Shown: piece by piece, positions 371 to 33,419 of the stretch
How positions within the stretch are numbered: position 1 is the first letter of the stretch
How the letters are laid out: every line of letters begins with the position of its first letter
Origin: Euryarchaeota archaeon UBA181
GTDB lineage: Archaea > Thermoplasmatota > Poseidoniia > Poseidoniales > Thalassarchaeaceae
Direction: 5' to 3'
Length of the DNA: 54,618 nucleotides
Assembly: GCA_002496725.1 (NCBI GenBank)
Contig: DALI01000068.1
Coordinates: 1 to 54,618 of the forward strand
Made by a program: the position numbers and the translations under genes
The notes under the pieces: generated by a model
The model's input: only the letters and a program-made list of their open reading frames with translations
What the model was told of the DNA's origin: nothing
The model's database searches: none

Positions 371-390
371 TTCCCACGGCCGTCATATTG

Positions 391-672
391 ATGCGATATG
401 ATACGTTCCACCGTTCGATGGCAGACCTCCACGCTTCAGAAATCAGGGGTCTCCCAGTGATTCTCCCCAGTGGCCGTCTGCTTGGAACGGTGTACGACTC
501 CTTCGTCAATACCGATGACTGGTCCTGCACCCATATCTTCGTCTCAGACCCCCCAGCTGATCTCGTCGAGGGAAGGACTCACTTGGCCATACCTTGGAAG
601 TGGGTCAGGTCGGTGAGCGACGTAGTATTGCTAAGGTGGTTCCCGCCAACCCCGATTCCCAAGAACCTTTGA
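391..672 (+). CDS. Small PRC-barrel domain protein
   Basis: ASEIRGLPVILPSGRLLGTVYDSFVNTDDW..THIFV...HLAIPWKWVRSVSDVVLL fits the PRC-barrel pattern (G-x-V, G-x-LG-x-V-D, IP..V). The ORF-track start at 367 is a GTG overlapping the L15e stop. The first ATG is at 391 and another is at 418, so the start is uncertain. Confidence 0.55.
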   Translation: MRYDTFHRSMADLHASEIRGLPVILPSGRLLGTVYDSFVNTDDWSCTHIFVSDPPADLVEGRTHLAIPWKWVRSVSDVVLLRWFPPTPIPKNL

Positions 673-728: not shown

Positions 729-3128
729 GTGCGTGCTGCCACGATATTGACCCTAGCCGCCTTACTGATGGCCACCTTATCCCCAATAGCACATGCTGAC
801 ACAAGGGGCGTGATAATTTGTGCAGGCGCTGATATGGAGATGATGCCAGCAAATTGGGAACTCGAGGACCAGGCATGCGTCAGAGTCGATCTCGGAGTTC
901 TCCAACAGGGAGAAACACTCTCATTCGACATCACCACAGACTCGGAAATAGACATACTCCTATTTTCATCGAACGCTATTACAGTCTATCAGAACGAGCA
1001 GTCTTACAGAAGTGACTCAGTATGGGAGAGTGACTCCGTCTTCGAGGAATTCAACGGCTCAGGGGCTTGGCATTGGACAGTTCCATCCGACAGAGACGCT
1101 ACTCGTTGGTACATGGTCTTGGATAATCTGGCACACCCACAGGACTCAGGTTCTGGCGACCAAGGGGTAGAACCTGCATCCGTGACCCTCGATGCGACTA
1201 CCATCTCACCTCAGCCATTCACTCTGGTAGACACCATCGTTCGCCTGGAGTCAGGCGAGCACTCCATTCTCTACGGGCCTTTCTCTATGGACGAAGGAAC
1301 CCAAGTTAGCATTCAGGTCAGTACAATGGAAGGTGCCCCAGACGTATTCATGATGAACGAAGAACAAGTCGAGTTGTACACCTCAGGTGGAACGGCCGCA
1401 GCACGCATACAGGGAACTGACATGCTCCTGATAACATCCAGCAGGAGTATCGTCTGGACCGTACCGGGCTCTCTCGAGGGAACTGACCTCTACCTCGTCG
1501 TCGATAACAGACCAGGGCCTTCAGGAGGAGGTGCTGGAACCCTCCCAATCGCGTCTACTGTAGTCATGACATTGACTCCAATAATGGATCCAATAATCAG
1601 TGGTATTTCCCCCTCTGGGACTGTAGATGTAGGGGCTGAGATAACCTTGGACGCATCCAATACTCCGAACCTGTCCAATCAAATTTCTGATTCTGGATAC
1701 TCGTGGGATACAGATGGCGATGGGTTTGATGATAATTCTGGAGTGCTATTCAACATCAGTTGGCCCGAGCCCACTAACATTACGATCAGGCTTTCAATAA
1801 CCGGTACCGATGGCAGAAGTACTAGCGTGTATGAGGAAGTAAGGGTCGAGGACATGTCTCCGCCATCCGTCGAGATTTCTGTTGAAGGGGTTCTCGAGAG
1901 ATCATTCAATGAAGACATAGTTCTAGGCTCCACATTCACTGACAACTGGGGTGTTTCCAAAGTAGAGTGGCTGGTGGATGGAGAGCTCCACTCTGAGTTC
2001 GAAGATGACTTCGGGACAGCATCCACATTCTCACACACATTCCAATCTGGAGAAGAATCAGGAATCCACCTAGTGACTCTCAGGGTCACCGATCTCTCAG
2101 GAATGATCACCGAGGACACAGCTTCAATCCAGGTCTTCGACTCCACATCCCCTGTCGCAGGAGCATTCGACAACTCCCTGATTTCCACAGTGGGAGAGCT
2201 TCTCGAATTAGAAATACCATTCGAGGACCAGGAGTCAGAGAATCTGTACTTCTCTTGGGATTTCGACGCACAAACCGATACTGATGGCGATGGTGATGAG
2301 GATAATGACGAGGATGCAGTTGGACCAATGGTACAACATTCATTCGATGAATCAGGAGTATACAGAGTAATCTGTAGGGCTCAGAATGACGAGGGCTTGG
2401 TATCAGTGGTGGAAATCCTCGTCACTGTGACCACGGTTTCCAGCGATGACGAGTTAGGGTTCACTGAACTACTGATGGCCCTCGGTGGAGTAATTCTACT
2501 GATAGTGATAGTATCGATGGTTTATCTGAGGGTCGCCTCCAATCGAAGGATGGCCTCTATCATTGCAGAGTCCGAGGCCAAGAAGGACGAGCAAGAATCA
2601 CAACCCAAGGAGATCTCAGTGGATGAGCAGAAGGCGATGTGGGGCGGCACTAGCACCAGTTCCGCTGTCTCCCAGCCCCAAGCCCTAGGTGGTGGCATAG
2701 CAAGCGGGATGTCAGGTGCTATTTCCTCCGAATCAGAAGCGTCATCAATAGACATTAGCGATGAAGAGTTCGACGAATTACTCTCGGCCCCCAGTGTCCA
2801 GAGAGAAGACAGTCAGGCAAATGACCTTCTCAGCGCATTCCAAGATGACGATGATGAGGTCGATCATGAAGGGAGCGTAGTGGAGTATACCTTCCCAGAA
2901 GAAGAATCTTCCAATCATGAGATTGAAGATAGTTTTGACTCAGCAAAGGTATTCCAGGTTATCGAATCCGAAGAAGAAACCATTCCTGATGCTACCGAAG
3001 ATAGAACGGTGAGGAGTAATTGCTCGAAGTGCGAGAAGATGTTCGAAGTCGACCTTCCAGAAGGTGTCGATAAAGCACGAACAGCTTGTCCACACTGTGG
3101 CTCGATTGAAACAGTGGAACTCGCGTGA
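729..3128 (+). CDS. Secreted type-I membrane protein: duplicated beta-rich N-domain, three PKD/Ig-like modules, one TM helix, ~200-aa acidic cytoplasmic tail ending in a zinc ribbon
   Basis: GTG start with a Sec-type signal peptide MRAATILTLAALLMATLSPIAHA. Two ~100-aa modules both end in Y-[ML]-V-[LV]-D-N (RWYMVLDN / DLYLVVDN). PKD signatures are YSWDTDGDG and FSWDFDAQTDTDGDG. The TM helix LLMALGGVILLIVIVSMVYL (about nt 2460-2530) is followed by RVASNRR (positive-inside). The tail is Asp/Glu/Ser-rich. Confidence 0.8.
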   Translation: MRAATILTLAALLMATLSPIAHADTRGVIICAGADMEMMPANWELEDQACVRVDLGVLQQGETLSFDITTDSEIDILLFSSNAITVYQNEQSYRSDSVWESDSVFEEFNGSGAWHWTVPSDRDATRWYMVLDNLAHPQDSGSGDQGVEPASVTLDATTISPQPFTLVDTIVRLESGEHSILYGPFSMDEGTQVSIQVSTMEGAPDVFMMNEEQVELYTSGGTAAARIQGTDMLLITSSRSIVWTVPGSLEGTDLYLVVDNRPGPSGGGAGTLPIASTVVMTLTPIMDPIISGISPSGTVDVGAEITLDASNTPNLSNQISDSGYSWDTDGDGFDDNSGVLFNISWPEPTNITIRLSITGTDGRSTSVYEEVRVEDMSPPSVEISVEGVLERSFNEDIVLGSTFTDNWGVSKVEWLVDGELHSEFEDDFGTASTFSHTFQSGEESGIHLVTLRVTDLSGMITEDTASIQVFDSTSPVAGAFDNSLISTVGELLELEIPFEDQESENLYFSWDFDAQTDTDGDGDEDNDEDAVGPMVQHSFDESGVYRVICRAQNDEGLVSVVEILVTVTTVSSDDELGFTELLMALGGVILLIVIVSMVYLRVASNRRMASIIAESEAKKDEQESQPKEISVDEQKAMWGGTSTSSAVSQPQALGGGIASGMSGAISSESEASSIDISDEEFDELLSAPSVQREDSQANDLLSAFQDDDDEVDHEGSVVEYTFPEEESSNHEIEDSFDSAKVFQVIESEEETIPDATEDRTVRSNCSKCEKMFEVDLPEGVDKARTACPHCGSIETVELA
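3021..3098 (+). other. C-terminal CxxC-x18-CxxC zinc-ribbon motif on the predicted cytoplasmic tail of the PKD protein
   Basis: CSKCEKMFEVDLPEGVDKARTACPHC read directly from the translation. It lies ~190 aa downstream of the only TM helix. Confidence 0.6.
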
Positions 3129-3189
3129 GTCATCCCCAACTCGCTTCAATCGAATAATTATCCAAATCAGGAGGGGCAATACCCTTTAG

Positions 3190-3208
3190 CGCACCTCTTT
3201 GAGGTGCG
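3190..3208 (+). promoter_or_regulatory. Perfect 8-bp/3-nt-loop hairpin whose 3' arm is the Shine-Dalgarno sequence of the 1465-aa gene
   Basis: CGCACCTC-TTT-GAGGTGCG. The GAGGTG at 3201-3206 lies 5 nt upstream of the ATG at 3212. Confidence 0.35.
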
Positions 3209-3211
3209 AGC

Positions 3212-6200
3212 ATGACAAAGAGCGGTGTCCGCGTTGTTCACAGGGCCCCACGGCTCCAGAACAACAATGCGTTACTAGTGGTTCTTGTTATGCTAATCCC
3301 ACTTTTTGCACCTATTCAAGGCGCAGAGGCAGAGGCTAGAATCGAGTCACAGGACTTCGAAATCCTCGATCGTCTTTCTGATGTACTAGATAATCGTCAA
3401 CAGGTGCTAGACTCTAACTCTGTGGGGCAAATGGCCGGACCTGCCATTCAGGGCGTCAAGGATGGAATATCTCCTAGCGGGCAAGCCCAACCTCTTTCTT
3501 CAATAGGGGACTCCCTCGAAGGGTCTTCCTTTACCGAGACAATGCCTTCAGAGCCTGAACATTCTCTGCCATACAGGCTGATTCTTGGAATCGAGGATGA
3601 TGCGGTTAGCGTTGACAACGTCTGGCAGACTCTCGTGAATATCACTGACTATGTCATCCTAACAGAGTACACAGATTTGGATGGAAACGTAGTTACGGGG
3701 ACTGAAGTAGTAACATTCACTGCTAATTTCCTCTCTCTCATAAACCTACAGACTGATCCTCTGAGTCATGCAGTAGACATTGACAATGATGGCGATGACG
3801 ATATTCAAGTCGGGCTGAGCATCTCTCTTGGCAACATAGGCTTAGACAACATAGATCTCGATACTGGAACGTTATGGATACAGCCCTCAGTCTCTTATTC
3901 TGTGGATGTCCTTGATTCGAGTCAGACGGACAGTGTCTGGGATGAAATGGACTCCTTACAAGTGTCTTTAATCAAGTCTTTCGCCTACTCAAGTCCCGAT
4001 TCGGTACTGGCGCTTGGGGATGGAGAGAGCTATATTTGGGTAGTCGACTCCAGATTCTCAACAATGCCTCAGGATTTCTCCCTGAGTATTGGGATCGAGA
4101 GGATATTCTTCAATGCGAGCGCCGTACTGCAAGATCTCATACAATCACTAGTGAATATATTCGCGTCGGATTTCGATGGCTCGGGCCTGACCCTTATTGG
4201 CATATCAGCCCCTTACTCGATATCCATAGACTCCAGTGAGATGGATTCTTGCCCAGATAGGTATAGTCCCGAGCAGCTTCTCTTTCTGCCCCCCGAAGAG
4301 ATAGATTGTGGAGTTTCCGTAGGTCTTGGGTATGCTAGATTCTCTCCTCCCTCAGAGGGTGTAAGGCAACTCTGGGAACTCGCATACATCGATCTCGATG
4401 TCAAACCAAATGGTGTCTCCTCGATGATTCCCGGAGATGTGGAGCTAGTAATCAGAACGGATAGTACAATCCCCGCAGCTGGTGGGATAGAGGGAGATAG
4501 AAGCCTCACTACCGTTGAGTATTTCGCAGATAGGAGATCGGATATACACATTCACTTCTTTGAAGACAGGGCTGGTGTTCCTGCTGAGGATAACGGGGGC
4601 TCATTCGGTAACACCACGGAATCACTTGGGTGGTTGAGAGGAATGCCCGAGGGCTCAATGTCCCAAGGGGAGATAACTAGGATTTTCAGAATGCTAGGAT
4701 CCTCCGATGAGCCAGATTTGCCTGGGGGCAAGCCAAGTAGATTGGGGTTAATACTGGGAATAAAGAACTTCTCAAGAGACACAAGCCCGAACGAGGATGA
4801 CCCAACTCTGCCAGTGAATCCAGCATATCCCCCGATCAGTATGATTCTACTCAGATCAGCGCAACCTCTTGATTCGTTGGACTACACCTCGTGGTTCGAG
4901 AGAGGGGGGGAATCAGCAGATCACAGAAGGGTCGATATTTCTATTCAGTCGATACCCACAGCCCTGGTTCTCTTCGGGTCCTTTGATGTCAGTGGATCAG
5001 ATGATGCTCAAATCAGCCTCGATGACTCAAACAATCTTGATTTCGTATCTAGAATAATGGACTCACTGATTCTAAATCTGGTAGATCTATACCTAGATGT
5101 TGGGGGAATACTCAACAGTATCCCCACCACAGTTGTGGAAGCAATAACTGGTAGTGTCGGTCCTAGTGGCGATTTACAAGGTAGGGAATTCAACTTATTG
5201 ATGCATGATAACTGGGGCGCATTGAGAAACGAGATGGCGATTGGGAGAGTCGGATTGCAAATAGGCTCCAGCCCACATCCAATCATCCTAGGGGACCATC
5301 TGGTTCTCTCCAAAGACAAGGGCCTTACTCAGGTGGTAAGTAGGGAGGGGACACTAGTGGACCCACTCGTTCCTGTGGCTGCCAGCATAGGTTTCAGTGG
5401 CCTCTCCGCCTTCTCAATCGATGATGACGATATTCTCGATGAACTAACCGTCTCAGTGAATACATCATCCAGTGAACCATTCAATTTCGTCTATATCGAT
5501 CACGAGCCTAGAACAATTTCCAACTCTTCGTATCAGGCACTCGCCATTTCTGATATTCCAGATGACATCAGTATCATGATAGATTCTGAGACAGCGACTT
5601 ACACTGCATCCCAGGGAATGGGCAAGATAACCTACACGGGAAAGGATCTGGAACAAAGGCAAGCTGTTGAAATAACTGATTTTCCAAATGAGTTCACAGC
5701 GTTTTTCGGAGGATTCTCTAGCTGGTCAACGACTTCATCTATCGGTATGATAGAAGCCCAAATCACAGATTCCCAGGATCCCGAAACAATGTCTGGAGAT
5801 CACTTCATGTTCCACCATGATCCGAATGATGGAACATCAACAATATCCTCCAGAATTTCAGGAATATCTGAAGTCAGTTGGATCCCCCCAATCTCCGAAG
5901 GATCCCTAGGGCCCGATGGTAGGGGAAAGGCGTCTATCTCTGCATCAGGGGATAGATCAATGAGCCTTAGCGTAGACCATGCTCCGACTTTGGATGAAGA
6001 CCAACTAACCGCTGTCGCAATAATAGATCCATTACCGTCATCAGTTTCTATAGAAATTCCAACTAGCTCTGACTCAGGCCCCGCTCTCGACATACCTGAA
6101 CTTAACACAAGTCTAGGATTGTCTGGGCTAGCCTTCTTCCTTGGAGGATTCGCTGATCTTGGTAGGTCGGTTAACACCGTCCTTTCTGGAATAACCACTG

Positions 6201-7609
6201 ATATTTCAACAGGAGCAAACTCTGGGGAATCCAGTGAGGATTTCTCTTTTGGCATGCAGTTAGAGGCCAATGCGCCCTTTGACCTGGTAGTTGAGTCAAG
6301 TCACGGAAATGGGTCCCTAGAGGCCCCCCCGTGGGTCCATGGAGTCTCATTCAATGCCGCCCCCTCGGGAATCTCGGATGGCTTCCATCTTAGGACATGG
6401 ATTCCCGATCTACCTCCGGTAGTCGATATGTCTGTATCCAGATCCGTTGAAGGGGAATCCCAAGACTGGCATGTGATGTTGGCATTAGACGGCTGGATCC
6501 CTGCTCATAGTGAAATGATGATCCAGGCTAGGGGGATAAACGGTCAAGACCTGCTAATGACTCTCAATGGACTGGAAGTGGGAACTCCTACTGGTATGCT
6601 CATAGACTCAACGTTCGAGTTTGAGACGGTAGCAGGAATTACAGAAGTTTCCACCTCTGCACACTATTCAATGACCGAAAGATTAGACTGGGCTCATGTA
6701 CTACTGATCAACAGGGATGCAGGAAGTCGTACTGAGATAATGATTGACGAAATCCCAGAGGTGATTGATATCACTGCAAGTCTCGGTACCGCAGTTTCGA
6801 TAGACATGACAGTGCCGGATCAATACTTGAGAGAAGACGGAGTCGGAATAAATTCGATAATGATGCAACAGATGCAATGGCTGGACTCAGCATGGTGGCC
6901 AGCAACTATTTTCTTGACCGATGTTCCCGGATCTATCAACCTAACAACTGAGCCAGATACAAACTTCGACATAACCCAGAGTCTCGCATTCCAAGGAATC
7001 CCCATACTGGACTATCGGGCTTCAGGAGAAGGGATGTCACTTTACATCGAGGCTTTTGGAAGATCGATTAATACTAAGGGAGATATAATTTTACTCGCGG
7101 AAGGACTATCAGATAGCCTAGTCATCAAGCCAGCCGACGGATATGGTTTGAATATCCGATCAGGAGGGGATGGAGTTGATACAATATATATCAGATCTAG
7201 CAACATACCTACCACTCCACCTGTGACCATGGAGGAGATGGAGGCATTGGGCGAGAACCTCAAGAGCGCTACGATACATATCCATGAACTCGGCCGAGTA
7301 TCATCGACACTTCCCGGCTACCCAGTTATCGAACTGTCAGATGTCCAAGGTGGTAAGATAATCATCTCGGCAAGAGCATCAGCAGAATTCGCAGGACAGG
7401 AGTTTGACCTTAGGGGTGTTCTCCTAGATGCCCAAACAACGTCTGGAATACCCACTGCGACTACCATAGGTGTCAACGGCCTAGCTTCCGATCTCTCTAT
7501 TCTGAATATTATTCCTGGATTCGAAGGGGAGACACAGCATATCATGGTAGTAGAGCCAGTATCATCGGGTATAATGACCCTTATCGCAACTTTTCTGGGG
7601 GGTAGTTGA
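3212..7609 (+). CDS. Giant (1465 aa) secreted orphan protein, candidate cell-envelope/S-layer-like glycoprotein
   Basis: ATG with a GAGGTG SD. N-terminal signal/anchor is RLQNNNALLVVLVMLIPLFAPIQGAEA. There is one integrin/FG-GAP-like Ca loop (DIDNDGDDD). By eye there are at least nine N-x-S/T sequons. A short C-terminal hydrophobic segment (SSGIMTLIATFLGGS) has no basic stop-transfer. I recognise no other domain. Confidence 0.8.
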   Translation: MTKSGVRVVHRAPRLQNNNALLVVLVMLIPLFAPIQGAEAEARIESQDFEILDRLSDVLDNRQQVLDSNSVGQMAGPAIQGVKDGISPSGQAQPLSSIGDSLEGSSFTETMPSEPEHSLPYRLILGIEDDAVSVDNVWQTLVNITDYVILTEYTDLDGNVVTGTEVVTFTANFLSLINLQTDPLSHAVDIDNDGDDDIQVGLSISLGNIGLDNIDLDTGTLWIQPSVSYSVDVLDSSQTDSVWDEMDSLQVSLIKSFAYSSPDSVLALGDGESYIWVVDSRFSTMPQDFSLSIGIERIFFNASAVLQDLIQSLVNIFASDFDGSGLTLIGISAPYSISIDSSEMDSCPDRYSPEQLLFLPPEEIDCGVSVGLGYARFSPPSEGVRQLWELAYIDLDVKPNGVSSMIPGDVELVIRTDSTIPAAGGIEGDRSLTTVEYFADRRSDIHIHFFEDRAGVPAEDNGGSFGNTTESLGWLRGMPEGSMSQGEITRIFRMLGSSDEPDLPGGKPSRLGLILGIKNFSRDTSPNEDDPTLPVNPAYPPISMILLRSAQPLDSLDYTSWFERGGESADHRRVDISIQSIPTALVLFGSFDVSGSDDAQISLDDSNNLDFVSRIMDSLILNLVDLYLDVGGILNSIPTTVVEAITGSVGPSGDLQGREFNLLMHDNWGALRNEMAIGRVGLQIGSSPHPIILGDHLVLSKDKGLTQVVSREGTLVDPLVPVAASIGFSGLSAFSIDDDDILDELTVSVNTSSSEPFNFVYIDHEPRTISNSSYQALAISDIPDDISIMIDSETATYTASQGMGKITYTGKDLEQRQAVEITDFPNEFTAFFGGFSSWSTTSSIGMIEAQITDSQDPETMSGDHFMFHHDPNDGTSTISSRISGISEVSWIPPISEGSLGPDGRGKASISASGDRSMSLSVDHAPTLDEDQLTAVAIIDPLPSSVSIEIPTSSDSGPALDIPELNTSLGLSGLAFFLGGFADLGRSVNTVLSGITTDISTGANSGESSEDFSFGMQLEANAPFDLVVESSHGNGSLEAPPWVHGVSFNAAPSGISDGFHLRTWIPDLPPVVDMSVSRSVEGESQDWHVMLALDGWIPAHSEMMIQARGINGQDLLMTLNGLEVGTPTGMLIDSTFEFETVAGITEVSTSAHYSMTERLDWAHVLLINRDAGSRTEIMIDEIPEVIDITASLGTAVSIDMTVPDQYLREDGVGINSIMMQQMQWLDSAWWPATIFLTDVPGSINLTTEPDTNFDITQSLAFQGIPILDYRASGEGMSLYIEAFGRSINTKGDIILLAEGLSDSLVIKPADGYGLNIRSGGDGVDTIYIRSSNIPTTPPVTMEEMEALGENLKSATIHIHELGRVSSTLPGYPVIELSDVQGGKIIISARASAEFAGQEFDLRGVLLDAQTTSGIPTATTIGVNGLASDLSILNIIPGFEGETQHIMVVEPVSSGIMTLIATFLGGS

Positions 7610-8169
7610 TGGGCCTTCTTGAGAGAATTAGACAGGTCGAAGAACCTGATGAGACATTGGAAGAGAGAACTGCTCATGATGCGCTAGATCTACTCGAAGA
7701 AAAACTCAGCCATATTTCGCCCTACAGGGTCATTTTTGCCTCTCTGACCGCACTTCTGGTCCTATCAGCCTCCTTGGTTGCCGTAGTGTGGTTAGTTCCG
7801 TATGATAGGGTATCTGTCGATGTGGTCTACAAGCAGGGGGGGTCTAGTCACATAATCCTCGCTGAGATAAACAACCAGGGTAGCAGGTCTATTGAGTCTG
7901 TATCTCTAGATCTGATCTTCATAGATTCAGAAGGTATGGAAATTCAAAGGACTCATTTCGAATCAGACAGAATCTCTGCCCATAAGTCACTAGCTGGGGA
8001 TGAACTGGAAATGATAGTTAACGGTGAATCAGTATGGGAAAACTACACAATTGACATAATTCTCACTTATGACAACTATCGTAAGAGTGTCTATGAGAAG
8101 AATACAATGGATGTGGGAGACTGGACTCTGGAGCTTTTCACAGTGAGGCCACCCTTGCAGATTCTATGA
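7609..8169 (+). CDS. Small bitopic membrane protein with one CARDB-like ectodomain, translationally coupled to the 1465-aa gene
   Basis: The ATG at 7609 shares its A with the upstream TGA (TGATG); the ORF-track start at 7606 is TTG. The protein has an acidic N-terminus, a TM helix VIFASLTALLVLSASLVAVVWLV, and a ~120-aa beta-rich domain containing ILAEINNQGSRS, the [VI]-x-N-x-G motif also repeated in the two following genes. Confidence 0.65.
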   Translation: MGLLERIRQVEEPDETLEERTAHDALDLLEEKLSHISPYRVIFASLTALLVLSASLVAVVWLVPYDRVSVDVVYKQGGSSHIILAEINNQGSRSIESVSLDLIFIDSEGMEIQRTHFESDRISAHKSLAGDELEMIVNGESVWENYTIDIILTYDNYRKSVYEKNTMDVGDWTLELFTVRPPLQIL

Positions 8170-8224
8170 TTAACCAGGTTCAGATAACCCATACTCTCAA
8201 AATGGCCTTGATGGAGGACTCATA

Positions 8225-11200
8225 GTGACCAAGCGCGCCGTTGTCCTCGTACTCTCCGTCCTGCTCCTGTCATATCTGCCTATTCTGGGCGAAGACGATG
8301 ATCGAGTAAAGCCACAACAGGAAGGTCTGGAGTATTCATTGGAGCGTGTCGAGATATCCCCTGATCCAAATAGCATCAGGAGTCTGGGGAGTCCCTCAAT
8401 ATACGATGGCCCTGAAGATTCCAGGCAAGTTATCGCCCACTCATCGATAGGAACCTACTCTCTCAATGGATTAATTCCTAGTACTCACATGGACCATTCA
8501 CTTGAGATTCCTAGGTCCGATCTAGCCATTGCTCTAGTGGATGGACAGACCGGCCTGTGGGATGCTAGGATGGACATTCTCCAATTGGAGGGAATCTCAA
8601 TCAGATCCACTATCCCCCCTTCCGGATTCCTAATCCAAGGGAGCCATTCATCTCTCGTTAAGCTGAATTCCCTAGAGTCCGTTGTTTCGATTCATGATGT
8701 TCCAAGCGGATTATTAGTCCATCCCTCTTTGAGGCACACTAGCCAACAATTCGACTTGATGATTGAGGTAATAGGCTGGAAGGGCGATGATATGGTTCGT
8801 CTAGAGAATCCAGGGCTAGGTCTTGACGACTCTTTGCATTCTGTGGCTCCTCAAATGACCGATGCCTGGTCTCCCGAGCCAGGGGTGTTGTGGGGCAAGA
8901 TATCTTCGACAAACATATCTGAAATCATCTCTCATCCATCCGTCTCATACATATCCCCCCTCCCAATACTCGTTCTTCACAATGACCAAGCAAGGGTAAA
9001 TATGGGAATTAATAGTGTTGAGAATGCCTTCATTACTGGTCTGAATGGTAGTGGACAGATTGTTGCAGTAGGAGACTCAGGTTTAGATAACGATCACGGG
9101 GATTTTACAGGTAGAATTTCTGGCATCACTTCCGTAACACCAGGTGACTCCTCAACCGCTGACCCAAGTGATGGTCACGGGACACATGTTGCATGTACAG
9201 TGCTTGGCTCAGGCTTCAGGAGCAGTGGGGGATACAAAGGAATCGCTCCCGAGGCAGATCTCTATTTCCAAGCCATGGAAGATGACGATTCGGGGGCATT
9301 GTATAGCTATGGAATAAACTCGATGCTCAATTCAGCCTACAATGCAGGGGCGCGAATACACACAAATAGCTGGGGGTCCACAAGCGGATTTGGAGGCTAC
9401 TCTACTCAGTCGGAGGATGCCGATGATAGAACCTCTACATGGGATCAGTACTGGTCGTATGACGGAATGACAGTTCTTTTCGCTGCGGGCAATGAAAGAG
9501 ATGACGGCGTCTCCCCACCAGGAACTGCAAAGAACGTAATCACGGTTGGAGGGCACAAGAACAGATACAGTGGTGCTCCAGATGAAATGTATTACTGGAG
9601 CAGTAGGGGACCGACCGATGATGGTAGGATAAAACCAGATTTAGTCGCCCCAGGGGACTATGTTCGTTCCTGTAAAGCCCAGGAGGCTAGCTCCGCAGGC
9701 GGCACTTGGTCCAACACATGGTACATGGAGTACAGTGGTACATCCATGGCGACTCCTGCCGCAGCTGGCTCATCCGCACTAGTAAGGGAGTATCTGACCG
9801 AGGTGATAGGTAGGCAGGCACCACAGGGCTCTCTCATCAAGGCCCTCCTAATCTTAGGGGCCAAAGATATGGGAAGTAGAGACATACCAAACAATGATGA
9901 GGGCTGGGGAAGGGTCGATTTAGTTGAATCCCTGATTCCAGATGGAGAAATAGGAATATTTGTTGATGATAGATCTAGGATAAAGAGCGGTCAAGTAGTA
10001 GAATATACCTTCGACGTCAATTCACCTGGCAATGAGTTCAAGGCAGTACTTGCTTGGTCAGATTATCCCGGCTCTTCTAGCTCATCCATTCAACTCAGAA
10101 ACGATCTCGATCTGGAACTCATCTCCCCTGATGGCATTACGTACAAGGGCAATGTCTTCACCAATGGGAGATCCTCTCAAGGAGGGACTAAGGACTCAGT
10201 GAACAATGTCGAAGTCGTCGCTCTTGACAGTACAGCCCAAGGAATCTGGACAATCAGAGTTACGGACTCACAGCATGGCGGGTCTAGGACATGGCAACCG
10301 TTCTCCATAGCAGTAAGGGGCCATAACGTGAATGATCTGAGTGCTGATCCAACATTCGTCCCTGACTCCATGAATATCTCAACTCCTATCCCCCAAGTAG
10401 GGGAGGACGTAGAGGTTTCTGTCCTAGTGAAGAATCTAGGAGCAGGGTCCATAGTAGACGTACCAGTCATCGCCAGAGTCAACTCGGCCCCTCTGGGGGA
10501 GCAACTGGTATCCCTATCTCCGGGTGAGACCGTTGAGCTGATGTGGACATGGTCCCCCGAGAGTGAGGGAGATGCGGCCTTCGAATTCTTCATCGACCCA
10601 AACAATCAATTCGATGAGATGTCAGACTCCAATAATTATCTTGGAGATATTGTGATCGTCAGTGCCCCAGGAGTCAGAGTTTCGGCACAGCAGGACACGA
10701 TTATCTTAGTAGACACATCATCCACCACATCTACCTGGGACTTAACTCTGACAAATACCGCACTCTTCGAGACAAATGCTACGATATCCGCCACCTCTCC
10801 CGTTAGAATCCAAGACGGCACGCAATTCGGCTGGTTCCAGTCTTTCACCTCAAACACGTTCAACCTCATGCCCGCTGAGCAAGTTTCTGTTGGGATGACT
10901 ATGGTTCACCCAGCTCCCCCTCCCCCTGGAATCTACTCAATGACACTATCAGGATACGATTTGGAGAACGATATACAATCAGATATCACACTATATTTCG
11001 AAGTCCCCGTTCTAGCAGACGCAGACATACAACTACTGAATGAGCAGATTCTTGTCAATCCATTTGATTCAACCAGTACCCAAATTACGATCGTCAATGA
11101 TGGAAATGGTGCCCAATCATACGATGTCGAGCTCGTTTCTCCTGCGGGATGGCATCTGGGACTCGACTCAATAGGGACGTTCGAAGGATCCTCACATGGA

Positions 11201-12709
11201 TCCACTGGAACATTGCAGAAAGACTCCAGTAGGACTGTTGACATCACAATCAATCCACCTGGTGCAATGATACCCGCGGGAACAACCTTCGAAGCGGCAA
11301 TAATCCTACACTCAAGGGTAAGCTCGGTTTCTTGGACACAGGACATCTTCCTCATCGTAGGCTCAGTGGACGAGTTCTCACTATCTCCCCAATCTGGGGA
11401 AGTAAAGGAAGAAATCTCTCCAGATTCCCTTCTCTTAATCGATTTCTCAATCGAAAATATTGGCAATAGGGATTGGGAAATGACCCCTTATCTGATGACT
11501 GTTCCCGGAGGGTGGAATGTTGTAGGGCCTCTCAGTGCAGTGACAGTTCCCGCTGGCCAAACCGTACTTTGGTCAATGGAGCTACAGGGTAATGGAATTG
11601 CTACAAGTGGCCTCATTGAGATTAGACTAGCCACCTCTGATGGATTCAGAATTGACTGGAATACTACAATAGAGGTTCTCTCTGCGGCATCACCCCAACT
11701 AATGTTTAACCAGGTATTTCTTCCAGATGGCTCTTCCTCCGATGAAATCCTAGGTGTTGGCTCCCATCCAGTTGGAGAACCTGGATTCGACCTCCACTGG
11801 ATGGTTTGGAACGAAGGCTCGGGAGTATGGAGGCCAACCACGGTCCTAGATCTGCCAAATCAAGAGTGGTCATCATCATGTTCTTCTCCTTCTTCACTTG
11901 CTCCAGGCGAGTCGGATATAGTTGAGTGCCTAGTGGTAATTCCCGATGACGAGCCTGCTGGATCAGAACCGATAATCACTCTGATTATGGAGGGGGACGG
12001 AATCGAGATTAGAGATACAAAGTCACTTCTCGTAGAGGACTCTCCAAGGCTATCTTGGACACTGCAAACAGAGCCTATAGCCCATGAAGGATATACATCC
12101 TCATACAGAATATCTGTAACTAACACAGGGAATAGCGATGTCTCACATACATTCGACGTTGAGGCCCCGGAATCCTGGAATGCTAGGGCTATCGATGGCG
12201 TGAGAATTGTGTTAAGTCCCGGTGAATCACGAAGTGTAATATTGGAGTTCACGCCCAATAGTGGCTCAGATTCGACAATATCAATCAATCTGATCAATTC
12301 CCAAGATTTCGAGGGCTCAACATTTGAAATTCCTGTTGACGTTATGCCATCACTAGGTAGTAACTCAGACTTAGGGGATTACCTTCCCTTCATACTGGGA
12401 ACCCTCCTCATCGCCGTGTTCGCCGCTCTCGGTACCTATGCTTATGTCAGGACTAATGGAGATCCTCTGAGTATGCTGAACAATAAGACACAAGGGAGAA
12501 GAGCAAGGTTGAATGACGCTCCTGAGATGGATAGTACTGGTGTCCCATGTTGGATATGTAGTACTGATGTTTCTGTTGGAAATGCACTAGCCTGCTCCTC
12601 GTGCGGTGCTAGATATCACAAGCAGAACCAAGTCAATGGATGTGATATTATCTCCATGGGAAGATGCCTGCATTGTGATGCAGATGTCGATGAACTCGTA
12701 GAGGCCTGA
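8225..12709 (+). CDS. Membrane-anchored subtilisin-like serine protease (peptidase S8) with beta-barrel post-domain, multiple CARDB/NEW3-like modules, TM helix and cytoplasmic zinc-finger tail
   Basis: GTG start with GGAGG 7 nt upstream and signal peptide MTKRAVVLVLSVLLLSYLPILG. Catalytic triad motifs are VGDSGLD (Asp codon 9074-9076), DGHGTHVA (His 9176-9178) and SGTSMATPAAAG (Ser 9743-9745). LAWSDYPG...LRNDLDLELISPDGITYKGN resembles the jelly-roll domain that follows KP-43-type subtilases. Repeats carry VSVLVKNLGAGS, QITIVNDGNGAQ, DFSIENIGNRDW and YRISVTNTGNSD. The TM helix YLPFILGTLLIAVFAALGTYAYV is at nt 12380-12448. Confidence 0.9.
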   Translation: MTKRAVVLVLSVLLLSYLPILGEDDDRVKPQQEGLEYSLERVEISPDPNSIRSLGSPSIYDGPEDSRQVIAHSSIGTYSLNGLIPSTHMDHSLEIPRSDLAIALVDGQTGLWDARMDILQLEGISIRSTIPPSGFLIQGSHSSLVKLNSLESVVSIHDVPSGLLVHPSLRHTSQQFDLMIEVIGWKGDDMVRLENPGLGLDDSLHSVAPQMTDAWSPEPGVLWGKISSTNISEIISHPSVSYISPLPILVLHNDQARVNMGINSVENAFITGLNGSGQIVAVGDSGLDNDHGDFTGRISGITSVTPGDSSTADPSDGHGTHVACTVLGSGFRSSGGYKGIAPEADLYFQAMEDDDSGALYSYGINSMLNSAYNAGARIHTNSWGSTSGFGGYSTQSEDADDRTSTWDQYWSYDGMTVLFAAGNERDDGVSPPGTAKNVITVGGHKNRYSGAPDEMYYWSSRGPTDDGRIKPDLVAPGDYVRSCKAQEASSAGGTWSNTWYMEYSGTSMATPAAAGSSALVREYLTEVIGRQAPQGSLIKALLILGAKDMGSRDIPNNDEGWGRVDLVESLIPDGEIGIFVDDRSRIKSGQVVEYTFDVNSPGNEFKAVLAWSDYPGSSSSSIQLRNDLDLELISPDGITYKGNVFTNGRSSQGGTKDSVNNVEVVALDSTAQGIWTIRVTDSQHGGSRTWQPFSIAVRGHNVNDLSADPTFVPDSMNISTPIPQVGEDVEVSVLVKNLGAGSIVDVPVIARVNSAPLGEQLVSLSPGETVELMWTWSPESEGDAAFEFFIDPNNQFDEMSDSNNYLGDIVIVSAPGVRVSAQQDTIILVDTSSTTSTWDLTLTNTALFETNATISATSPVRIQDGTQFGWFQSFTSNTFNLMPAEQVSVGMTMVHPAPPPPGIYSMTLSGYDLENDIQSDITLYFEVPVLADADIQLLNEQILVNPFDSTSTQITIVNDGNGAQSYDVELVSPAGWHLGLDSIGTFEGSSHGSTGTLQKDSSRTVDITINPPGAMIPAGTTFEAAIILHSRVSSVSWTQDIFLIVGSVDEFSLSPQSGEVKEEISPDSLLLIDFSIENIGNRDWEMTPYLMTVPGGWNVVGPLSAVTVPAGQTVLWSMELQGNGIATSGLIEIRLATSDGFRIDWNTTIEVLSAASPQLMFNQVFLPDGSSSDEILGVGSHPVGEPGFDLHWMVWNEGSGVWRPTTVLDLPNQEWSSSCSSPSSLAPGESDIVECLVVIPDDEPAGSEPIITLIMEGDGIEIRDTKSLLVEDSPRLSWTLQTEPIAHEGYTSSYRISVTNTGNSDVSHTFDVEAPESWNARAIDGVRIVLSPGESRSVILEFTPNSGSDSTISINLINSQDFEGSTFEIPVDVMPSLGSNSDLGDYLPFILGTLLIAVFAALGTYAYVRTNGDPLSMLNNKTQGRRARLNDAPEMDSTGVPCWICSTDVSVGNALACSSCGARYHKQNQVNGCDIISMGRCLHCDADVDELVEA
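12548..12676 (+). other. C-x2-C-x11-C-x2-C-x4-H-x7-C-x7-C-x2-C (C4HC3 order) zinc-finger motif on the cytoplasmic tail of the S8 protease
   Basis: CWICSTDVSVGNALACSSCGARYHKQNQVNGCDIISMGRCLHC read directly from the translation, ~30 aa after the TM helix and basic stop-transfer (RTNG...RRAR). Confidence 0.55.
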
Positions 12710-12761
12710 CAATCGTATCTCTAGCGGTCATAGGGTGCGAAGGGCTTAGAGGGTCGGTATT

Positions 12762-15464
12762 GTGCGAAATGTGATGGTTAGCAGAAGACCCCTGACTTTT
12801 TTCATTGTAATCATGCTTCTAAGTATGTCTGCAACCGTTGTTTCCGCCGATGTAGACATTTCTCTTTCCGCGAACCCAAGCTCAGCTGAGGCAACACCAG
12901 ATGAGGCCGCTGAGTACAACATATTGATCCAGAACTCAGGGGATGATGATGCCGCTGTCTCCCTCAGTACCCAACAAGGAAATGATTGTAACGGGTTCTC
13001 CTCGACTTTGGAAACCACATTCGTTCAGGTCGGGTCTCAATCCTCAGAGTCAGTTACCCTCACTGTCACAGTCACCGACCAAGCCAGTGGTGAGTGTGAG
13101 ACTACTGTAAATGCACAGGGGCAGGTATCCGGTGGTGCACCAGGAACTCCTTCGAATGCTGATGTCACCGTTGTAACTACAGCAGGAGACGGAGGGGGGC
13201 TATATTCCGTAAGCCTCTCCACTGATGAGTCCACAACAAAAAACTATGATGGCGAGGATAATGATGTTACCTGGGATGTCGATGTAGAGAACAACGGGGA
13301 ACAGCAGGCGAACGTGCAACTGGAGATGATCTCTGACAGTGACTGCGAGTCAGATGAACTATCTGCTACAGTAGACCCCTCCGTTCTTCAGTTAGAGCCA
13401 GAAGCGCAGGAAGAAGTCACTGTTACTGTGGATATGCCAAATGGGGGTGAAACTGACGCAGGGTCCCATTGTTTCATATTGAAGGCCACTGTTACCAATG
13501 ATCCAAATGCGGCCGACCAAGCTGAAGATAATTTGACCCTGAGCCTCAATGTTCCGCAAATAAGGGAATGTGACGCATCTCTACAGTATAGCTCTCACAA
13601 CCTCGACCCCGGAGAGTCAGCACCAAATTCCATCGAAGTCGAGAACATTGGAAACACGGAGTGGACTGTGACGGCAAATGCACAGTCTGTAGATGGTGAG
13701 GATATTTCAGAGTGGATAGATTTCGACAGTCCTCGGAGTACGCTCTTGGAAGAGCCGGGTAGCTCAGAAGATACTCATACATTCACATTCGAAGTAACTC
13801 CAGACGACTCTCTTGAGGCAGGAACCCAAGTTGCAATTGGAATACAGGGTAGAGCTGGTTCTGAGATAGGATGTGAGAAAATTCTCACAGTCACTGTGGG
13901 GCAAGAGTTCGGTGCTTCTATGGCACTAAGTAAGTCAACTCTCTCGAACGTACAACCGGGGTCATCCGGGATCCTTTCATTACAGGTCACAAATCAAGGG
14001 AACGGCCAGGAAACTATGGCATTAGGTACATCGGGCATACCTGCTGGATGGCAAGTCTCATTCTCACAGTCATCAGTTACTCTCGGCAGTTCCCAATCAT
14101 CCACCAACAGGGAGACCGTAGATGTGGAAGTATTCGTCCCTGAGGACGCTAGCGCAGAGTCCGATGCTGTAATCACCTTCACAGTGGGCAGAGGAGGAGG
14201 CTCCACCCCATATGCGTCCGGGGATCTCACTGTATCTGTAGCCGCTAGGCACGAGGTCTCCACGTCAATGGTATCGGATCAACAGACTGGTAGATCTGAT
14301 CAGATTGTGCAGTTCCCAATTGTTGTTACTAACTCAGGTAATATTCAGGACACTTTCAGACTACAAGCTTGTGATCCTGGGGATCAGACAGGATGTAGTA
14401 ACCCAATGTGGCAATCTTCGTTTTCAGATTCAGCCGGTAATTCCATCTCACAGATAGTACTTGATCAGGGCGAGTCAGATCAGATTTATCTGGATGTACT
14501 GGTAGAGGGAGAAGAAGATGCAGACTCCGCAGACGTACTTGTGAGGATAGGTATCTTCGGAACTAGCGAGTCCTCAGAGCATACTGTTTCTGTAATAGTC
14601 TCGAATTATAATTATGGAATGGCGGTGTCCCCTCAATCACCCGGAGATGTCCCAGGACAAATGGATGTCATCCTGCCTCCTGGAGGCTTGTTATCGTCAT
14701 TCTTCTGGATAGATAATACGGGAGACTATCCGGCGGGGGATACTGCAGTTATTACAATAACAGGATTAGAATCATCAGTTACTAGGAACGTTTTCGTTGA
14801 TGGGGTTGAGATTGAGAACTCTATTCAGATCCCGAGAGAAGGAAGAGTTCTCGTAGAGGTCCAGATGGAAGTGATGGAAGGCGTCTCCAATGGAGTATCT
14901 GGCATACTAAAGGTATCAGCGGCTTCTGAGAGGAACGCCGCTCAGACCACATCCATTGACGTGATGATACAAGTCATGACGATACATGATCTAACATTCA
15001 CGCTTGAAGGCGAGGATGAGCAGACCTTAGAATATCCAGACAAGGCATTCTTCAGCATGTTTGTCACAAATAATGGAAATGTCGTTGAGGATGTCGAGGT
15101 GAAATCAGGAGAGTCCCTCAGAGGTTGGACGATTGACGTTATTGAAGACGAGTTCCAGCTTCAGCCCGGTGAAACCAGAGAGATTCAAGTCCGAGCAACA
15201 CCTCCCTCTGAACTCCTCGGCGATGATACGTACAGGTTCACAGTAATTGCTCAGCCTGAGGGGATTCCAGTCGCAGGTCAGCCAATCGAGCTCACTGTAA
15301 TTGCCATCTCTTCCAATTCCTTCCTAAATCTGTCAGAGGAGGTCCAAGACATACTGGTGTATGGGTTAACTGGCTTCGGCGCACTACTAGTAATCGCTCT
15401 TTTCTTACGCTCTAGAGCAGAAAATAAGAGGATAGTTCGGGCACTCGATCAAGATGACTCATAG
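12762..15464 (+). CDS. Secreted, C-terminally anchored protein of about seven tandem CARDB/NEW3 (COG1470-like) beta-sandwich modules
   Basis: GTG at 12762 with GAGGGT 7 nt upstream (alternative ATG at 12774) and a signal peptide ...FIVIMLLSMSATVVSA. There are seven [VI]-x-N-x-G motifs: LIQNSGD, DVENNGE, EVENIGN, QVTNQGN, VVTNSGN, WIDNTGD, FVTNNGN. The first three modules each hold a Cys pair. The C-terminal TM helix ILVYGLTGFGALLVIALFL is followed by RSRAENKR. Confidence 0.8.
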   Translation: MRNVMVSRRPLTFFIVIMLLSMSATVVSADVDISLSANPSSAEATPDEAAEYNILIQNSGDDDAAVSLSTQQGNDCNGFSSTLETTFVQVGSQSSESVTLTVTVTDQASGECETTVNAQGQVSGGAPGTPSNADVTVVTTAGDGGGLYSVSLSTDESTTKNYDGEDNDVTWDVDVENNGEQQANVQLEMISDSDCESDELSATVDPSVLQLEPEAQEEVTVTVDMPNGGETDAGSHCFILKATVTNDPNAADQAEDNLTLSLNVPQIRECDASLQYSSHNLDPGESAPNSIEVENIGNTEWTVTANAQSVDGEDISEWIDFDSPRSTLLEEPGSSEDTHTFTFEVTPDDSLEAGTQVAIGIQGRAGSEIGCEKILTVTVGQEFGASMALSKSTLSNVQPGSSGILSLQVTNQGNGQETMALGTSGIPAGWQVSFSQSSVTLGSSQSSTNRETVDVEVFVPEDASAESDAVITFTVGRGGGSTPYASGDLTVSVAARHEVSTSMVSDQQTGRSDQIVQFPIVVTNSGNIQDTFRLQACDPGDQTGCSNPMWQSSFSDSAGNSISQIVLDQGESDQIYLDVLVEGEEDADSADVLVRIGIFGTSESSEHTVSVIVSNYNYGMAVSPQSPGDVPGQMDVILPPGGLLSSFFWIDNTGDYPAGDTAVITITGLESSVTRNVFVDGVEIENSIQIPREGRVLVEVQMEVMEGVSNGVSGILKVSAASERNAAQTTSIDVMIQVMTIHDLTFTLEGEDEQTLEYPDKAFFSMFVTNNGNVVEDVEVKSGESLRGWTIDVIEDEFQLQPGETREIQVRATPPSELLGDDTYRFTVIAQPEGIPVAGQPIELTVIAISSNSFLNLSEEVQDILVYGLTGFGALLVIALFLRSRAENKRIVRALDQDDS

Positions 15465-15546: not shown

Positions 15547-15996
15547 GTGTTTGTCTTGACTACTGTTCCAGAGGCCTATCTCGCGGTCGCTGTGATGGCT
15601 CTCGTAGGAATCGGTTTCCCTGTCATGAGCTTCATTGGTTCAGGCTTTCTGAGACCTAGAAAAACAGGTAATGATCCGAACAAGCTAAGCTCTTGGCTAC
15701 TTCCAGGATACGAGTCTGACCAGTCACTGTATGTCAGGAGAGAATCTACCTACGAGTGTGGCTCTGATCCTGTAGGCGATGCACATATCAATTTCCATTT
15801 CCAGTATTACTGGTACGCGATAATCTTCTTAGTTTTTGATATCGCATTCATGTTTCTCGCGTTTGGAGGAATACTGGTCATTCAGGAGGGAGCTGTCTCC
15901 ATCTACAGCTCTCTAGCCACTCTGACAATTTTCATTTCACTCATGGGAGCAGGTGTTTGGCATGTTTTCAGGAAGAGAGGAAGAATATACATCTGA
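15547..15996 (+). CDS. nuoA: NADH-quinone oxidoreductase-like complex, subunit A
   Basis: A three-TM protein with the YECG motif (STYECGSDPVG) and FLVFDIAFMFL (the FD-hE region), in first position of the operon. GTG start; the exact start is uncertain. Confidence 0.8.
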   Translation: MFVLTTVPEAYLAVAVMALVGIGFPVMSFIGSGFLRPRKTGNDPNKLSSWLLPGYESDQSLYVRRESTYECGSDPVGDAHINFHFQYYWYAIIFLVFDIAFMFLAFGGILVIQEGAVSIYSSLATLTIFISLMGAGVWHVFRKRGRIYI

Positions 15997-16005
15997 GGTG
16001 ACAGC

Positions 16006-16602: not shown

Positions 16603-16609
16603 GGCTATC

Positions 16610-30905: not shown

Positions 30906-30964
30906 AAACCACGATTACAAGAAAGCGGCTCCATTCAATTGAAGGCTCGCACATCATCTCGCAC

Positions 30965-32533: not shown

Positions 32534-32537
32534 AAAT

Positions 32538-33401: not shown

Positions 33402-33419
33402 ATTTAGAGAGGCATTACA

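Follow-up and report, generated by a model that had tools for sequence, protein, structure and literature searches.

A Poseidoniales-wide gene cluster of predicted cell-envelope proteins, comprising an old pair of orphan families and a putatively tethered subtilase

On a 54,618-nucleotide (nt) contig of Euryarchaeota archaeon UBA181 (DALI01000068.1; the window, below, is this whole stretch of DNA), five consecutive genes, here called g1 to g5, are predicted to encode surface proteins, among them an S8 subtilase (g4) and a giant protein of no recognised family (g2). Judging by the names of the g2 homologues, the source lineage belongs to Thalassarchaeaceae, which is the MGIIb family within Poseidoniales (Marine Group II, MGII). 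Comparisons of sequence and gene order indicate (i) that the cluster is vertically inherited, order-wide and native to Poseidoniales; (ii) that g2 and g3 form an old, translationally coupled pair; and (iii) that the set of five arose specifically in Poseidoniales, by accretion around that pair. We give about an even chance to the reading that follows, namely that the cluster is an order-wide envelope module made up of a g2-g3 complex and a tethered exoprotease. A first-pass annotation of this stretch had seen in the five genes a dedicated surface assembly, S-layer-like or scaffold proteins with a tethered protease; its observations are partly confirmed and its interpretation partly supported by the analysis reported here.

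Results

Five predicted ectoproteins in a conserved gene order

The sizes and spacing of the five plus-strand genes given in the first-pass annotation were reproduced from the list of open reading frames (ORFs), with gaps of 83 nt (g1/g2), -1 nt (g2/g3), 55 nt (g3/g4) and 52 nt (g4/g5), as were the Shine-Dalgarno motifs assigned to genes 2, 4 and 5, which are purine-rich GAGG-type motifs located 8-10 nt 5' of the respective starts. A hydropathy scan likewise bore out the claim of an N-terminal signal peptide or anchor on every product, with signal peptides on g1, g2, g4 and g5 and a signal anchor on g3, and it detected one strong transmembrane helix each in g1 (residues 581-599), g4 (1386-1404) and g5 (864-882). 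The C-terminal hydrophobic anchor that had been assigned to four of the proteins is therefore a clear transmembrane helix in g1, g4 and g5 but not in g2, where about 14 hydrophobic residues are found; and for g1 and g4 the description was incomplete, as tails of 200 and 90 amino acids (aa), with zinc-ribbon and zinc-finger motifs respectively, extend into the cytoplasm beyond the helix. The recurrence of a [VI]xNxG motif in three of the proteins held up, with 1, 5 and 7 copies in g3, g4 and g5 as compared with fewer than one expected. All five proteins are very acidic (isoelectric points of 4.05-4.5), and from these features we predict that all are exported, acidic ectoproteins anchored at the membrane, where g2 would be held by g3. 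The existence of full-length homologues at 31-90% identity further indicates that the five genes are real.

Relatives of g2 were found in at least 216 genomes in a scan restricted to one genome per GTDB species. Gene order was compared in 80 loci at species level and in a further three from divergent Poseidoniales (L084, L090 and L091), and the synteny in related genomes that the first-pass annotation had proposed as a check on its reading held in all of them. As determined by tblastn, the order L15e-PRC-g1-g2-g3-g4-g5-nuoA-nuoB-nuoC is present in 80 of the 80 species-level loci wherever the contig reaches, at identities to the window of 34-75% for g1, 45-90% for g2, 40-80% for g3, 46-84% for g4 and 44-88% for g5, and of 81-97% and 84-98% for the flanking genes L15e and nuoB. 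Distant full-length g2 homologues (33-40% identity), identified by an exhaustive HMMER search, also carry Poseidoniales names. The gene order is the same in the three divergent loci, where g2 is 31-33% identical by tblastn; two of these, L084 and L090, lie outside the range of the 80 loci, since their L15e is only 65-71% identical. L091 contains the five genes tightly packed, while L084 contains all five with an extra Lactamase_B gene before g1. A metallo-beta-lactamase-fold gene lies between the PRC-barrel gene and g1 both in L084 (2900-4027) and in L090 (3481-4605), and the four genes inserted between g1 and g2 of L090, one of them HAD-like, occupy positions 7353-9861. A 9-kb contig carrying rpl15e-PRC-g1-g2-g3 (L082, NZGC01000064.1) is filed under the metagenome-assembled genome (MAG) 'Gammaproteobacteria bacterium MED698' and is very probably mis-binned.

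The published table from which we took transcript data (see below) includes, in the portion available to us, the eggNOG seed tags MG2_0423 for L15e, MG2_0429 for the subtilase and MG2_0433/0434 for nuoB/nuoC (PMC9723583). Spaced in this way, the tags are consistent with the same arrangement, plus one additional gene, in the original MG-II reference genome, which we take to be a member of MGIIa.

The g2-g3 pair

The exported, acidic g2 protein is almost all beta. In an AlphaFold2 (AF2) model that covers residues 266-1465 (alignment of 35 homologues, down to 17% identity; mean predicted local distance difference test score (pLDDT) 78.8, predicted TM-score (pTM) 0.69), the only helices are two of about 35 residues each (residues 611-646 and 966-1000) and a short one at the C-terminus. 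A cysteine pair, C347/C366, is invariant. Neither g2 nor g3 belongs to any family in Pfam or NCBIfam, in agreement with the first-pass annotation, which could name no domain in gene 2. Searching the PDB with a g2 profile yielded no sequence match other than chance matches to PCNA at an E-value of about 0.02; Foldseek comparisons of the model with the PDB and with the viral models of BFVD yielded TM-scores of about 0.1 or less at probabilities of at most 0.28 (at most 0.14 for the PDB); and no internal repeats are detectable. On the strength of these three results, the modelled fold appears to be an orphan relative to the structure libraries compared (PDB, BFVD). Matches to ApoB100, LptD and TonB-type barrels had probabilities of at most 0.14, and for this reason we did not read them as signs of lipid transport or of an outer-membrane barrel. 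The Foldseek comparison with SlaA (7zcx) revealed no structural similarity (E 0.3, TM-score 0.05). The 'many' N-glycosylation sequons reported for gene 2 amount to 9 N-x-S/T sites where 9.4 are expected from composition, and in g4 (6 against 13 expected) and g5 (2 against 8.9) such sites are depleted.

The C-terminus of g2 is its most distinctive segment. The hydrophobic stretch of about 14 residues that follows a conserved P-E-P is not followed by a basic tail and seems too short for a transmembrane helix, so that it is unlikely to span the membrane. Among the approximately 90 C-termini compared, every member of the g2 family ends in H-x-[IV]-[IV]-P-[EDA]-P, 10-14 serine, threonine or hydrophobic residues and a stop codon, and the motif, which the AF2 model renders as a short helix, persists into Thermoplasmata homologues of 19-25% identity. 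With its P-E-P motif the tail resembles a C-terminal sorting signal, but it lacks both the full transmembrane helix and the basic cluster of PEP-CTERM and PGF-CTERM signals, and no NCBIfam PEP-CTERM or PGF-CTERM model matched g2 or its last 69 residues. We regard the g2 tail as a candidate docking peptide, by which g2 would attach to g3 or to the membrane, or as a candidate for an undescribed sorting signal.

The partner, g3, is a bitopic, N-in membrane protein that consists of a cytoplasmic head of about 40 aa, a transmembrane helix (residues ~42-64) and, outside, a beta-sandwich of about 120 aa bearing the xNxG motif. P64, just after the helix, and N89 and G91 are invariant in an alignment that includes the remote partners described below; a match to FxLYD_dom (E 0.017) fell below the cutoff and was not used. 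The stop codon of g2 and the start codon of g3 overlap in the window as TGATG, and the g2-g3 gap has a median of -1 nt over 81 loci.

The pair reaches beyond Poseidoniales. Remote g2 homologues of 1250-1836 aa, the few with names being labelled 'Thermoplasmata archaeon', were recovered by HMMER at 19-25% identity and resemble g2 over the full length and at the termini; a profile search that included them recovered six proteins. In four of the five distinct contexts (L085, L086/L087, L088 and L089), a small ORF (111+ to 161 aa) lies 4-40 nt after the g2-like gene, and these small ORFs resemble g3 in having an N-terminal transmembrane helix, the invariant proline just beyond it and the xNxG motif. 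The g3 hidden Markov model, moreover, finds the L088 partner, which is absent from its alignment, at an E-value of 3e-10. No S8 protease, g5 or g1 gene adjoins these remote pairs. Since only g2 and g3 travel together outside Poseidoniales, the five-gene set appears to be specific to the order, and the unit of five that the first-pass annotation had proposed does not extend beyond it.

As a further case of immunoglobulin (Ig)-like surface domains near a g2-g3 pair, the remote pair of L089 is adjoined by a divergent ABC-2 transporter operon (5354-9802), in which one permease gene encodes a NEW3 (NPCBM_assoc) Ig-like ectodomain; a gene for a NosD/beta-helix protein is also found there.

The subtilase g4, the Ig-array protein g5 and the PKD protein g1

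The sequence of g4 is that of a pre-pro S8 subtilase, with a signal peptide, a pro-region of about 250 aa and a catalytic domain (residues 275-562) that matches the complete PF00082 Peptidase_S8 model (positions 1-288; E 6.3e-47, 160.7 bits against a cutoff of 21.8). The complete D/H/S triad noted in the first-pass annotation was verified: D284 (GDSG), H318 (HGTH) and S507 (GTSM), as well as the oxyanion residue N423 (AAGN), are invariant in 71 orthologues. A P-domain/beta-barrel follows at residues ~620-686 (P_proprotein, 622-686, E 8.5e-6), and a segment of about 410 aa (residues 256/271-680) aligns with KP-43 (1wmd) and SubHal (5fax) at an E-value of 1e-74, over chain positions 17-417 of 434 and thus into the post-catalytic barrel; Tk-SP (3afg) aligns over a shorter stretch. 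We therefore predict that g4 is an intact, active subtilase of the KP-43 type and not a pseudo-enzyme. Its Pfam domains occur in the order Peptidase_S8, P-domain, CARDB, NEW3, and about six CARDB/NEW3-type Ig domains (residues ~700-1380) make up a stalk that leads to the transmembrane helix. The cytoplasmic tail contains eight cysteine and histidine residues in a RING-like or double-zinc-ribbon-like arrangement (residues 1442-1484), for which matches to Prok-RING_1 and DZR were sub-threshold.

A comparison of orthologues from L001, L003, L027, L030, L076, L081 and other loci revealed that the genera of Thalassarchaeaceae differ in this tail (window positions 12437-12706), which takes one of three mutually exclusive forms, each of them strongly conserved in its own group: the zinc finger of the window type (CWIC...CGARYH...GCD...CLHCDA), a tryptophan-rich form (EYPGWLWDxxxEEWVPDP) and an unrelated sequence (L076 and L081).

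The type-I membrane protein g5 consists of a signal peptide, seven tandem Ig-like domains of the CARDB/NEW3/ASH type, the transmembrane helix and a short conserved basic tail, RSRAENRRI. Its Pfam matches are to Ig-like families only (CARDB/NEW3/FixG_C/HYDIN type), and it scores above the cutoff of NCBIfam NF041740, 'choice-of-anchor T' (89 bits against 70, E 2.8e-25, in five stretches), while the PGF-CTERM model did not match. An AF2 model (mean pLDDT 73.9) depicts seven beta-sandwiches in a string, followed by a C-terminal helix; its top 50 Foldseek matches are tandem Ig arrays (Hydin/ASH-type ciliary proteins, alpha2-macroglobulin MG domains, titin), with no archaeal S-layer protein among these 50, and neither the g5 protein nor its profile matched a PDB sequence. 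The expectation that g2 and g5 would fall outside characterised S-layer and adhesin families was borne out to the extent that the PDB profile and Foldseek comparisons revealed no S-layer kin of either. Over 330 aa, or three consecutive domains, the stalk of g4 and g5 are 23% identical (E 6e-5), and the two are homologous arrays of the same domain type and similar length.

Also a type-I membrane protein, g1 carries a signal peptide, a duplicated N-terminal domain, three PKD/Ig-like domains (residues ~306-575), the transmembrane helix and a tail. The PKD modules claimed for gene 1 are confirmed by scores above the Pfam thresholds (PKD_4, 42.9 bits against 27; PKD, 32.8 against 23.5), and a g1 profile matches solely the PKD domains of ColH and similar proteins (ColH PKD, E 2.6e-11). 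Residues ~28-290 (window ~810-1598) are an internal duplication of a domain of about 120 aa (hhalign probability 96%) that has no match in Pfam, NCBIfam or PDB sequences; this N-terminal part of the ectodomain features a W-Y-L-V-x-D-N motif, a glycine-rich loop and, N-terminally, a conserved cysteine pair (C31/C50). The cytoplasmic tail of about 200 aa is acidic, contains a conserved EEQKAMWG motif and ends in a zinc ribbon (CxxC...CPxC, residues 765-790), the cysteines of which are invariant in 17 aligned orthologues, including the most distant ones, although Pfam matches to zinc ribbons were sub-threshold.

Transcript levels in a related genome

Transcript coverage was taken from supplementary file 4 of Damashek et al. 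2021 (PMC9723583) for SIMO Bin 19-2, a MAG of genus O1, and the statements that follow apply to the portion of that file available to us. Genes 394-398 of this MAG correspond to g5, g4, g3, g2 and g1, bracketed by nuoA (393) and by the PRC and L15e genes (399/400). The five genes are transcribed in situ at levels similar to one another and to the nuo genes, and about 10-50 times below ribosomal protein genes (Table 1); for g2 and g5, coverage is about 10 times below that of L15e and about 50 times below that of L44e in the same MAG. Messenger RNAs of S-layer proteins usually rank among the most abundant, and the ordinary level of these transcripts therefore argues against a classic S-layer. 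In another study, the dominant MGII transcripts encoded disordered 'collagen-like cell surface' proteins (PMC5069720).

The same MAG, an MGIIb genome, has at least three S8 subtilase genes in the portion of the file we used (59, 395 and 558). Gene 558 is the subtilase that was significantly depleted in dark incubations, and it is a paralogue distinct from the g4 of the cluster, gene 395 (PMC9723583). We considered identifying g4 with the 'highly transcribed subtilase' of that study, a link that could not be made from the available portion, in which the numbered subtilase is the paralogue 558.

Locus layout and neighbouring genes

Coordinates are collected in Table 1. That the five genes run in one direction, which the first-pass annotation had noted of the locus, turned out to be uninformative: every gene called between positions 14 and 38411 is on the plus strand. 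This uninterrupted run of about 38 kb includes rpl15e, the five surface genes, a complex I operon (nuoA, B, C, D, H and I, then L, M and N, with no nuoE/F/G-like genes seen), genes for eIF1A, a RIO kinase, a KH protein and a molybdopterin oxidoreductase, and, at 30902-35482, a set for a biotin-dependent acyl-CoA carboxylase with an enoyl-CoA hydratase. Elsewhere in the window, a gene for a presenilin-type signal-peptide peptidase is located at 41339-42475, and three ORFs that lack a Pfam match at E 1e-5 (426 aa on the minus strand, 284 and 270 aa on the plus strand; 48089-51118) lie between genes for an Lhr-type helicase and an M50 site-2 protease.

A foreign island was considered and discarded, the base composition of the cluster being the same as that of its neighbours. 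Codon usage carries no signal as an expression proxy in this genome, being flat in nearly all genes (effective number of codons 48-56). Scans of the window for tRNAs and Rfam families gave no match, and a scan for bacterial promoters and terminators, with models ill-suited to archaea, gave counts at or below shuffle expectation.

Table 1. Positions of the cluster and its flanks in the window, and transcript coverage of the corresponding genes in SIMO Bin 19-2 (samples FN66 and FN71; from the available portion of supplementary file 4, PMC9723583)
Feature	Position	Strand	Description	FN66	FN71
Upstream flank	14..672	+	rpl15e (truncated by window start) and PRC-barrel gene		
g1	729..3128	+	799 aa	0.17	0.11
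g2	3212..7609	+	1465 aa	0.13	0.10
g2 C-terminal motif	7538..7606	+	H-x-[IVM]-x-x-[PE]-[EDA]-P-h-[ST]-[ST]-h-h-h-T-h-h, then stop		
g3	7606/7609..8169	+	187 aa from TTG at 7606; 186 aa from ATG at 7609	0	0.08
g4	8225..12709	+	1494 aa	0.13	0.04
g5	12762..15464	+	900 aa	0.17	0.20
Downstream flank	15547..17269	+	nuoA, nuoB, nuoC; start of complex I operon	0.15-0.26	0.06-0.20
L15e				1.24	0.33
L44e				6.8	2.1

Discussion

A possible envelope module and its alternatives

In the arrangement that we favour, g2, which lacks a true transmembrane helix, would be held at the membrane by g3, probably via its C-terminal P-x-P hydrophobic peptide, and the two proteins together would constitute a two-component surface complex of new fold. 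As a tethered exoprotease whose head is lifted off the membrane by about six Ig domains, g4 would cut environmental proteins, and possibly trim its neighbours too; the cutting of external protein would fit the protein-scavenging lifestyle of MGII, in which protein degradation and extracellular S8 proteases are established features (PMC6864105; PMC9723583). The g5 protein would be a pillar that matches the height of g4, both g5 and g1 may serve as spacers or binding partners, and through their conserved cytoplasmic tails, g1, g4 and g5 would link the module to something inside the cell. Because the module is expressed at a housekeeping level, a sparse functional surface machine seems more likely than a lattice that coats the cell.

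A number of observations weigh against this arrangement. The unrelated flanking genes (rpl15e, the PRC-barrel gene and nuoA-C) are as syntenic as the five genes themselves, and the conserved order is therefore weak evidence of shared function and may reflect low rearrangement. In L090, four genes separate g1 from g2, with g2-g3-g4-g5-nuoA unbroken; the g2 homologue of L092 has no g3 within 10 kb; gaps of 52-83 nt between genes are roomy enough for separate promoters; and the cluster contains no peptide transporter gene. As the g4 tail differs by genus, a single fixed cytoplasmic partner is doubtful, and modular partners seem the better explanation. Finally, in the available portion of the coverage file, appreciable coverage was confined to two samples, FN66 and FN71 (7 of 24 samples covered).

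Much of this would also be accommodated if the five genes had no joint function and encoded independent exported proteins that happen to lie together in a housekeeping region of streamlined genomes where all genes run in one direction and rearrangement is slow. Not only are the unrelated flanks equally syntenic, but the entire 38 kb lies on the plus strand, base composition and codon usage are the same as those of the neighbours, g1, g4 and g5 do not accompany g2-g3 outside Poseidoniales, and an insertion parts g1 from g2 in L090. The coupling of g2 to g3, however, is too tight and too old for chance; g4 and g5 are alike in the domain type of their stalks and in the approximate length of their ectodomains; the block g2-g3-g4-g5 is unbroken even where g2 identity has fallen to 31-33% and other genes have been inserted around it; and topology and, in the available data, transcript levels are alike across the five genes. 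We accordingly rate a lack of joint function as rather unlikely for the cluster as a whole: for g2 and g3 a relationship of mere neighbours is unlikely, whereas for g1, g4 and g5 it is still a possible account.

The second alternative is a two-component S-layer, in which g2 would form the lattice canopy and g3 the membrane stalk, as in SlaA/SlaB, with g4 as an S-layer-bound protease like STABLE and g5 perhaps as a second, Ig-repeat layer. A large exported, beta-rich, acidic protein with a small co-translated, membrane-anchored partner is what such a layer would call for; slaA and slaB are likewise adjacent and bicistronic, and STABLE is an S-layer-bound subtilase (PMC5744192). The g2-g3 pair is, furthermore, widespread in Thermoplasmata, no MGII S-layer gene is described in the literature we searched, and the Ig repeats and C-terminal anchor of g5 recall, from general knowledge, the S-layer glycoproteins of euryarchaea. 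These likenesses are offset by the nuo-level transcripts of g2 and g5 in the data available and by the identity of the top MGII transcripts elsewhere as 'collagen-like cell surface' proteins (PMC5069720); by the dissimilarity of g2 from SlaA and the absence of archaeal S-layer proteins among the top 50 matches of g5; by sequons that are not enriched; and by g3, which is anchored at its N-terminus and has no coiled coil, unlike SlaB. In addition, g2, at 45-90% identity within the family, is more conserved than the fast-evolving S-layer proteins usually are. We thus consider an S-layer unlikely, and the 'S-layer-like' label of the first-pass annotation is disfavoured, with the five genes at nuo-level transcripts and 10-50 times below ribosomal protein genes in the portion of the file available.

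It is very unlikely, in our estimation, that g4 chiefly serves the maturation of g1, g5 or g2 (in the last case by, for example, uncovering or cutting off the C-terminal peptide), with nutrition secondary: although a protease gene directly follows g2-g3 in every Poseidoniales locus, STABLE of S. marinus has been proposed to cleave the tetrabrachion precursor (PMC5744192), other MGII S8 paralogues could serve nutrition (PMC6864105) and it is another paralogue, gene 558, that was significantly depleted in dark incubations in the data available (PMC9723583), the remote g2-g3 pairs keep the C-terminal motif without an adjacent S8 gene, and the long stalk would put the catalytic head of g4 away from the membrane and the g2 tail.

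Relation to known systems

The composition of the favoured module has partial counterparts. Like g2 and g3, SlaA and SlaB of Sulfolobales pair a large, beta-rich exported protein with a smaller one that is anchored in the membrane and built of beta-sandwich domains, and their genes are adjacent and co-expressed (PMC5744192). However, they have no sequence or fold similarity to g2 and g3, SlaB carries a C-terminal transmembrane helix and a coiled coil where g3 has an N-terminal helix, one small domain and no coiled coil, and the g2-g3 transcripts are, in the data available, at an ordinary level. The tetrabrachion/STABLE complex of Staphylothermus marinus is also an archaeal surface assembly with a protease of the subtilisin family, which has been proposed to serve two ends, the nutrition of a cell that ferments peptides and the processing of the surface protein (PMC5744192). 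Here the differences are that STABLE binds a coiled-coil stalk, whereas g4 has its own Ig stalk, transmembrane helix and cytoplasmic tail; that the g2 model, with just its two 35-residue helices, has no long coiled coil; and that S. marinus belongs to Desulfurococcales, while the host of the cluster is a mesophilic member of Thermoplasmatota. The first-pass annotation had known of no named system of this composition: tetrabrachion/STABLE is a named relative of the concept (PMC5744192), although the cluster itself appears in no paper that we found, and the literature search likewise found none on any MGII envelope protein.

The individual parts are less unusual. KP-43 and SubHal (1wmd, 5fax) and Tk-SP (3afg) share the catalytic and barrel domains and the complete triad with g4, but they are soluble, secreted proteins of ~430-540 aa, to which g4 adds about six Ig domains, a transmembrane helix and a cytoplasmic zinc finger. 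Giant, stalked, envelope-anchored S8 proteases similar to g4, with weak matches in the S8 domain, include the cell-envelope proteinases (CEPs) of lactic acid bacteria, with PrtP and C5a peptidase, and pyrolysin of Pyrococcus. Such enzymes provide the cell with oligopeptides (for their roles, see PMC10535647). The homology is distant: these proteases are anchored by LPXTG or wall-binding elements rather than by a transmembrane helix with a cytoplasmic tail, their stalk domains differ, and a PA-domain insertion was not detected in g4. As for g5, it scores above the cutoff of the NF041740 'choice-of-anchor T' family and has CARDB-like Pfam matches in common with CARDB/NEW3 surface proteins; that family has no tested function, and the anchor of g5 is a plain transmembrane helix with a conserved basic tail. 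Tandem Ig domains and a C-terminal anchor are common to g5 and the csg-type S-layer glycoproteins of euryarchaea, but there is no specific sequence or structural kinship, no PGF-CTERM match and, at 2 sequons where 8.9 are expected, no sign of the heavy N-glycosylation of that group.

Tethered envelope subtilases, Ig-repeat surface proteins and the extracellular S8 class of MGII are thus already known. What appears to be undescribed is the composition of the cluster, the orphan g2 and g3 families with their C-terminal motif, and the zinc-binding cytoplasmic tails, and we consider the g2-g3 pair to be the part most worth following.

Implications

A wider reading, possible in our view but doubtful, makes g2 and g3 a two-component envelope system that occurs across Thermoplasmatota and has so far gone unrecognised; to this system Poseidoniales would have added a tethered protease, a pillar of Ig domains and the PKD protein with its zinc ribbon. 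Such a system would be characterised by a new all-beta fold of ~1,300-1,700 residues, an N-anchored partner and a new C-terminal signal, H-x-I-I-P-x-P followed by a short hydrophobic tail.

The members of Marine Group II, which are uncultured, count among the archaea that are most abundant in the surface ocean. For this order the cluster provides order-wide candidates: a cell-tethered protease of relevance to marine protein degradation, and a giant protein of orphan fold that, together with its partner, reaches back into other Thermoplasmata. The proteins are possible targets for metaproteomics, antibodies, labelling in cryo-electron tomography and studies of virus receptors. Should g2-g3 turn out to form a structural layer or to represent a novel sorting system, the few archaeal envelope architectures known so far would gain a new type; and if the wider reading were true, the cluster would specify a transmembrane-connected surface machine that might serve the most abundant planktonic archaea as their structural outer layer or main virus-receptor surface.

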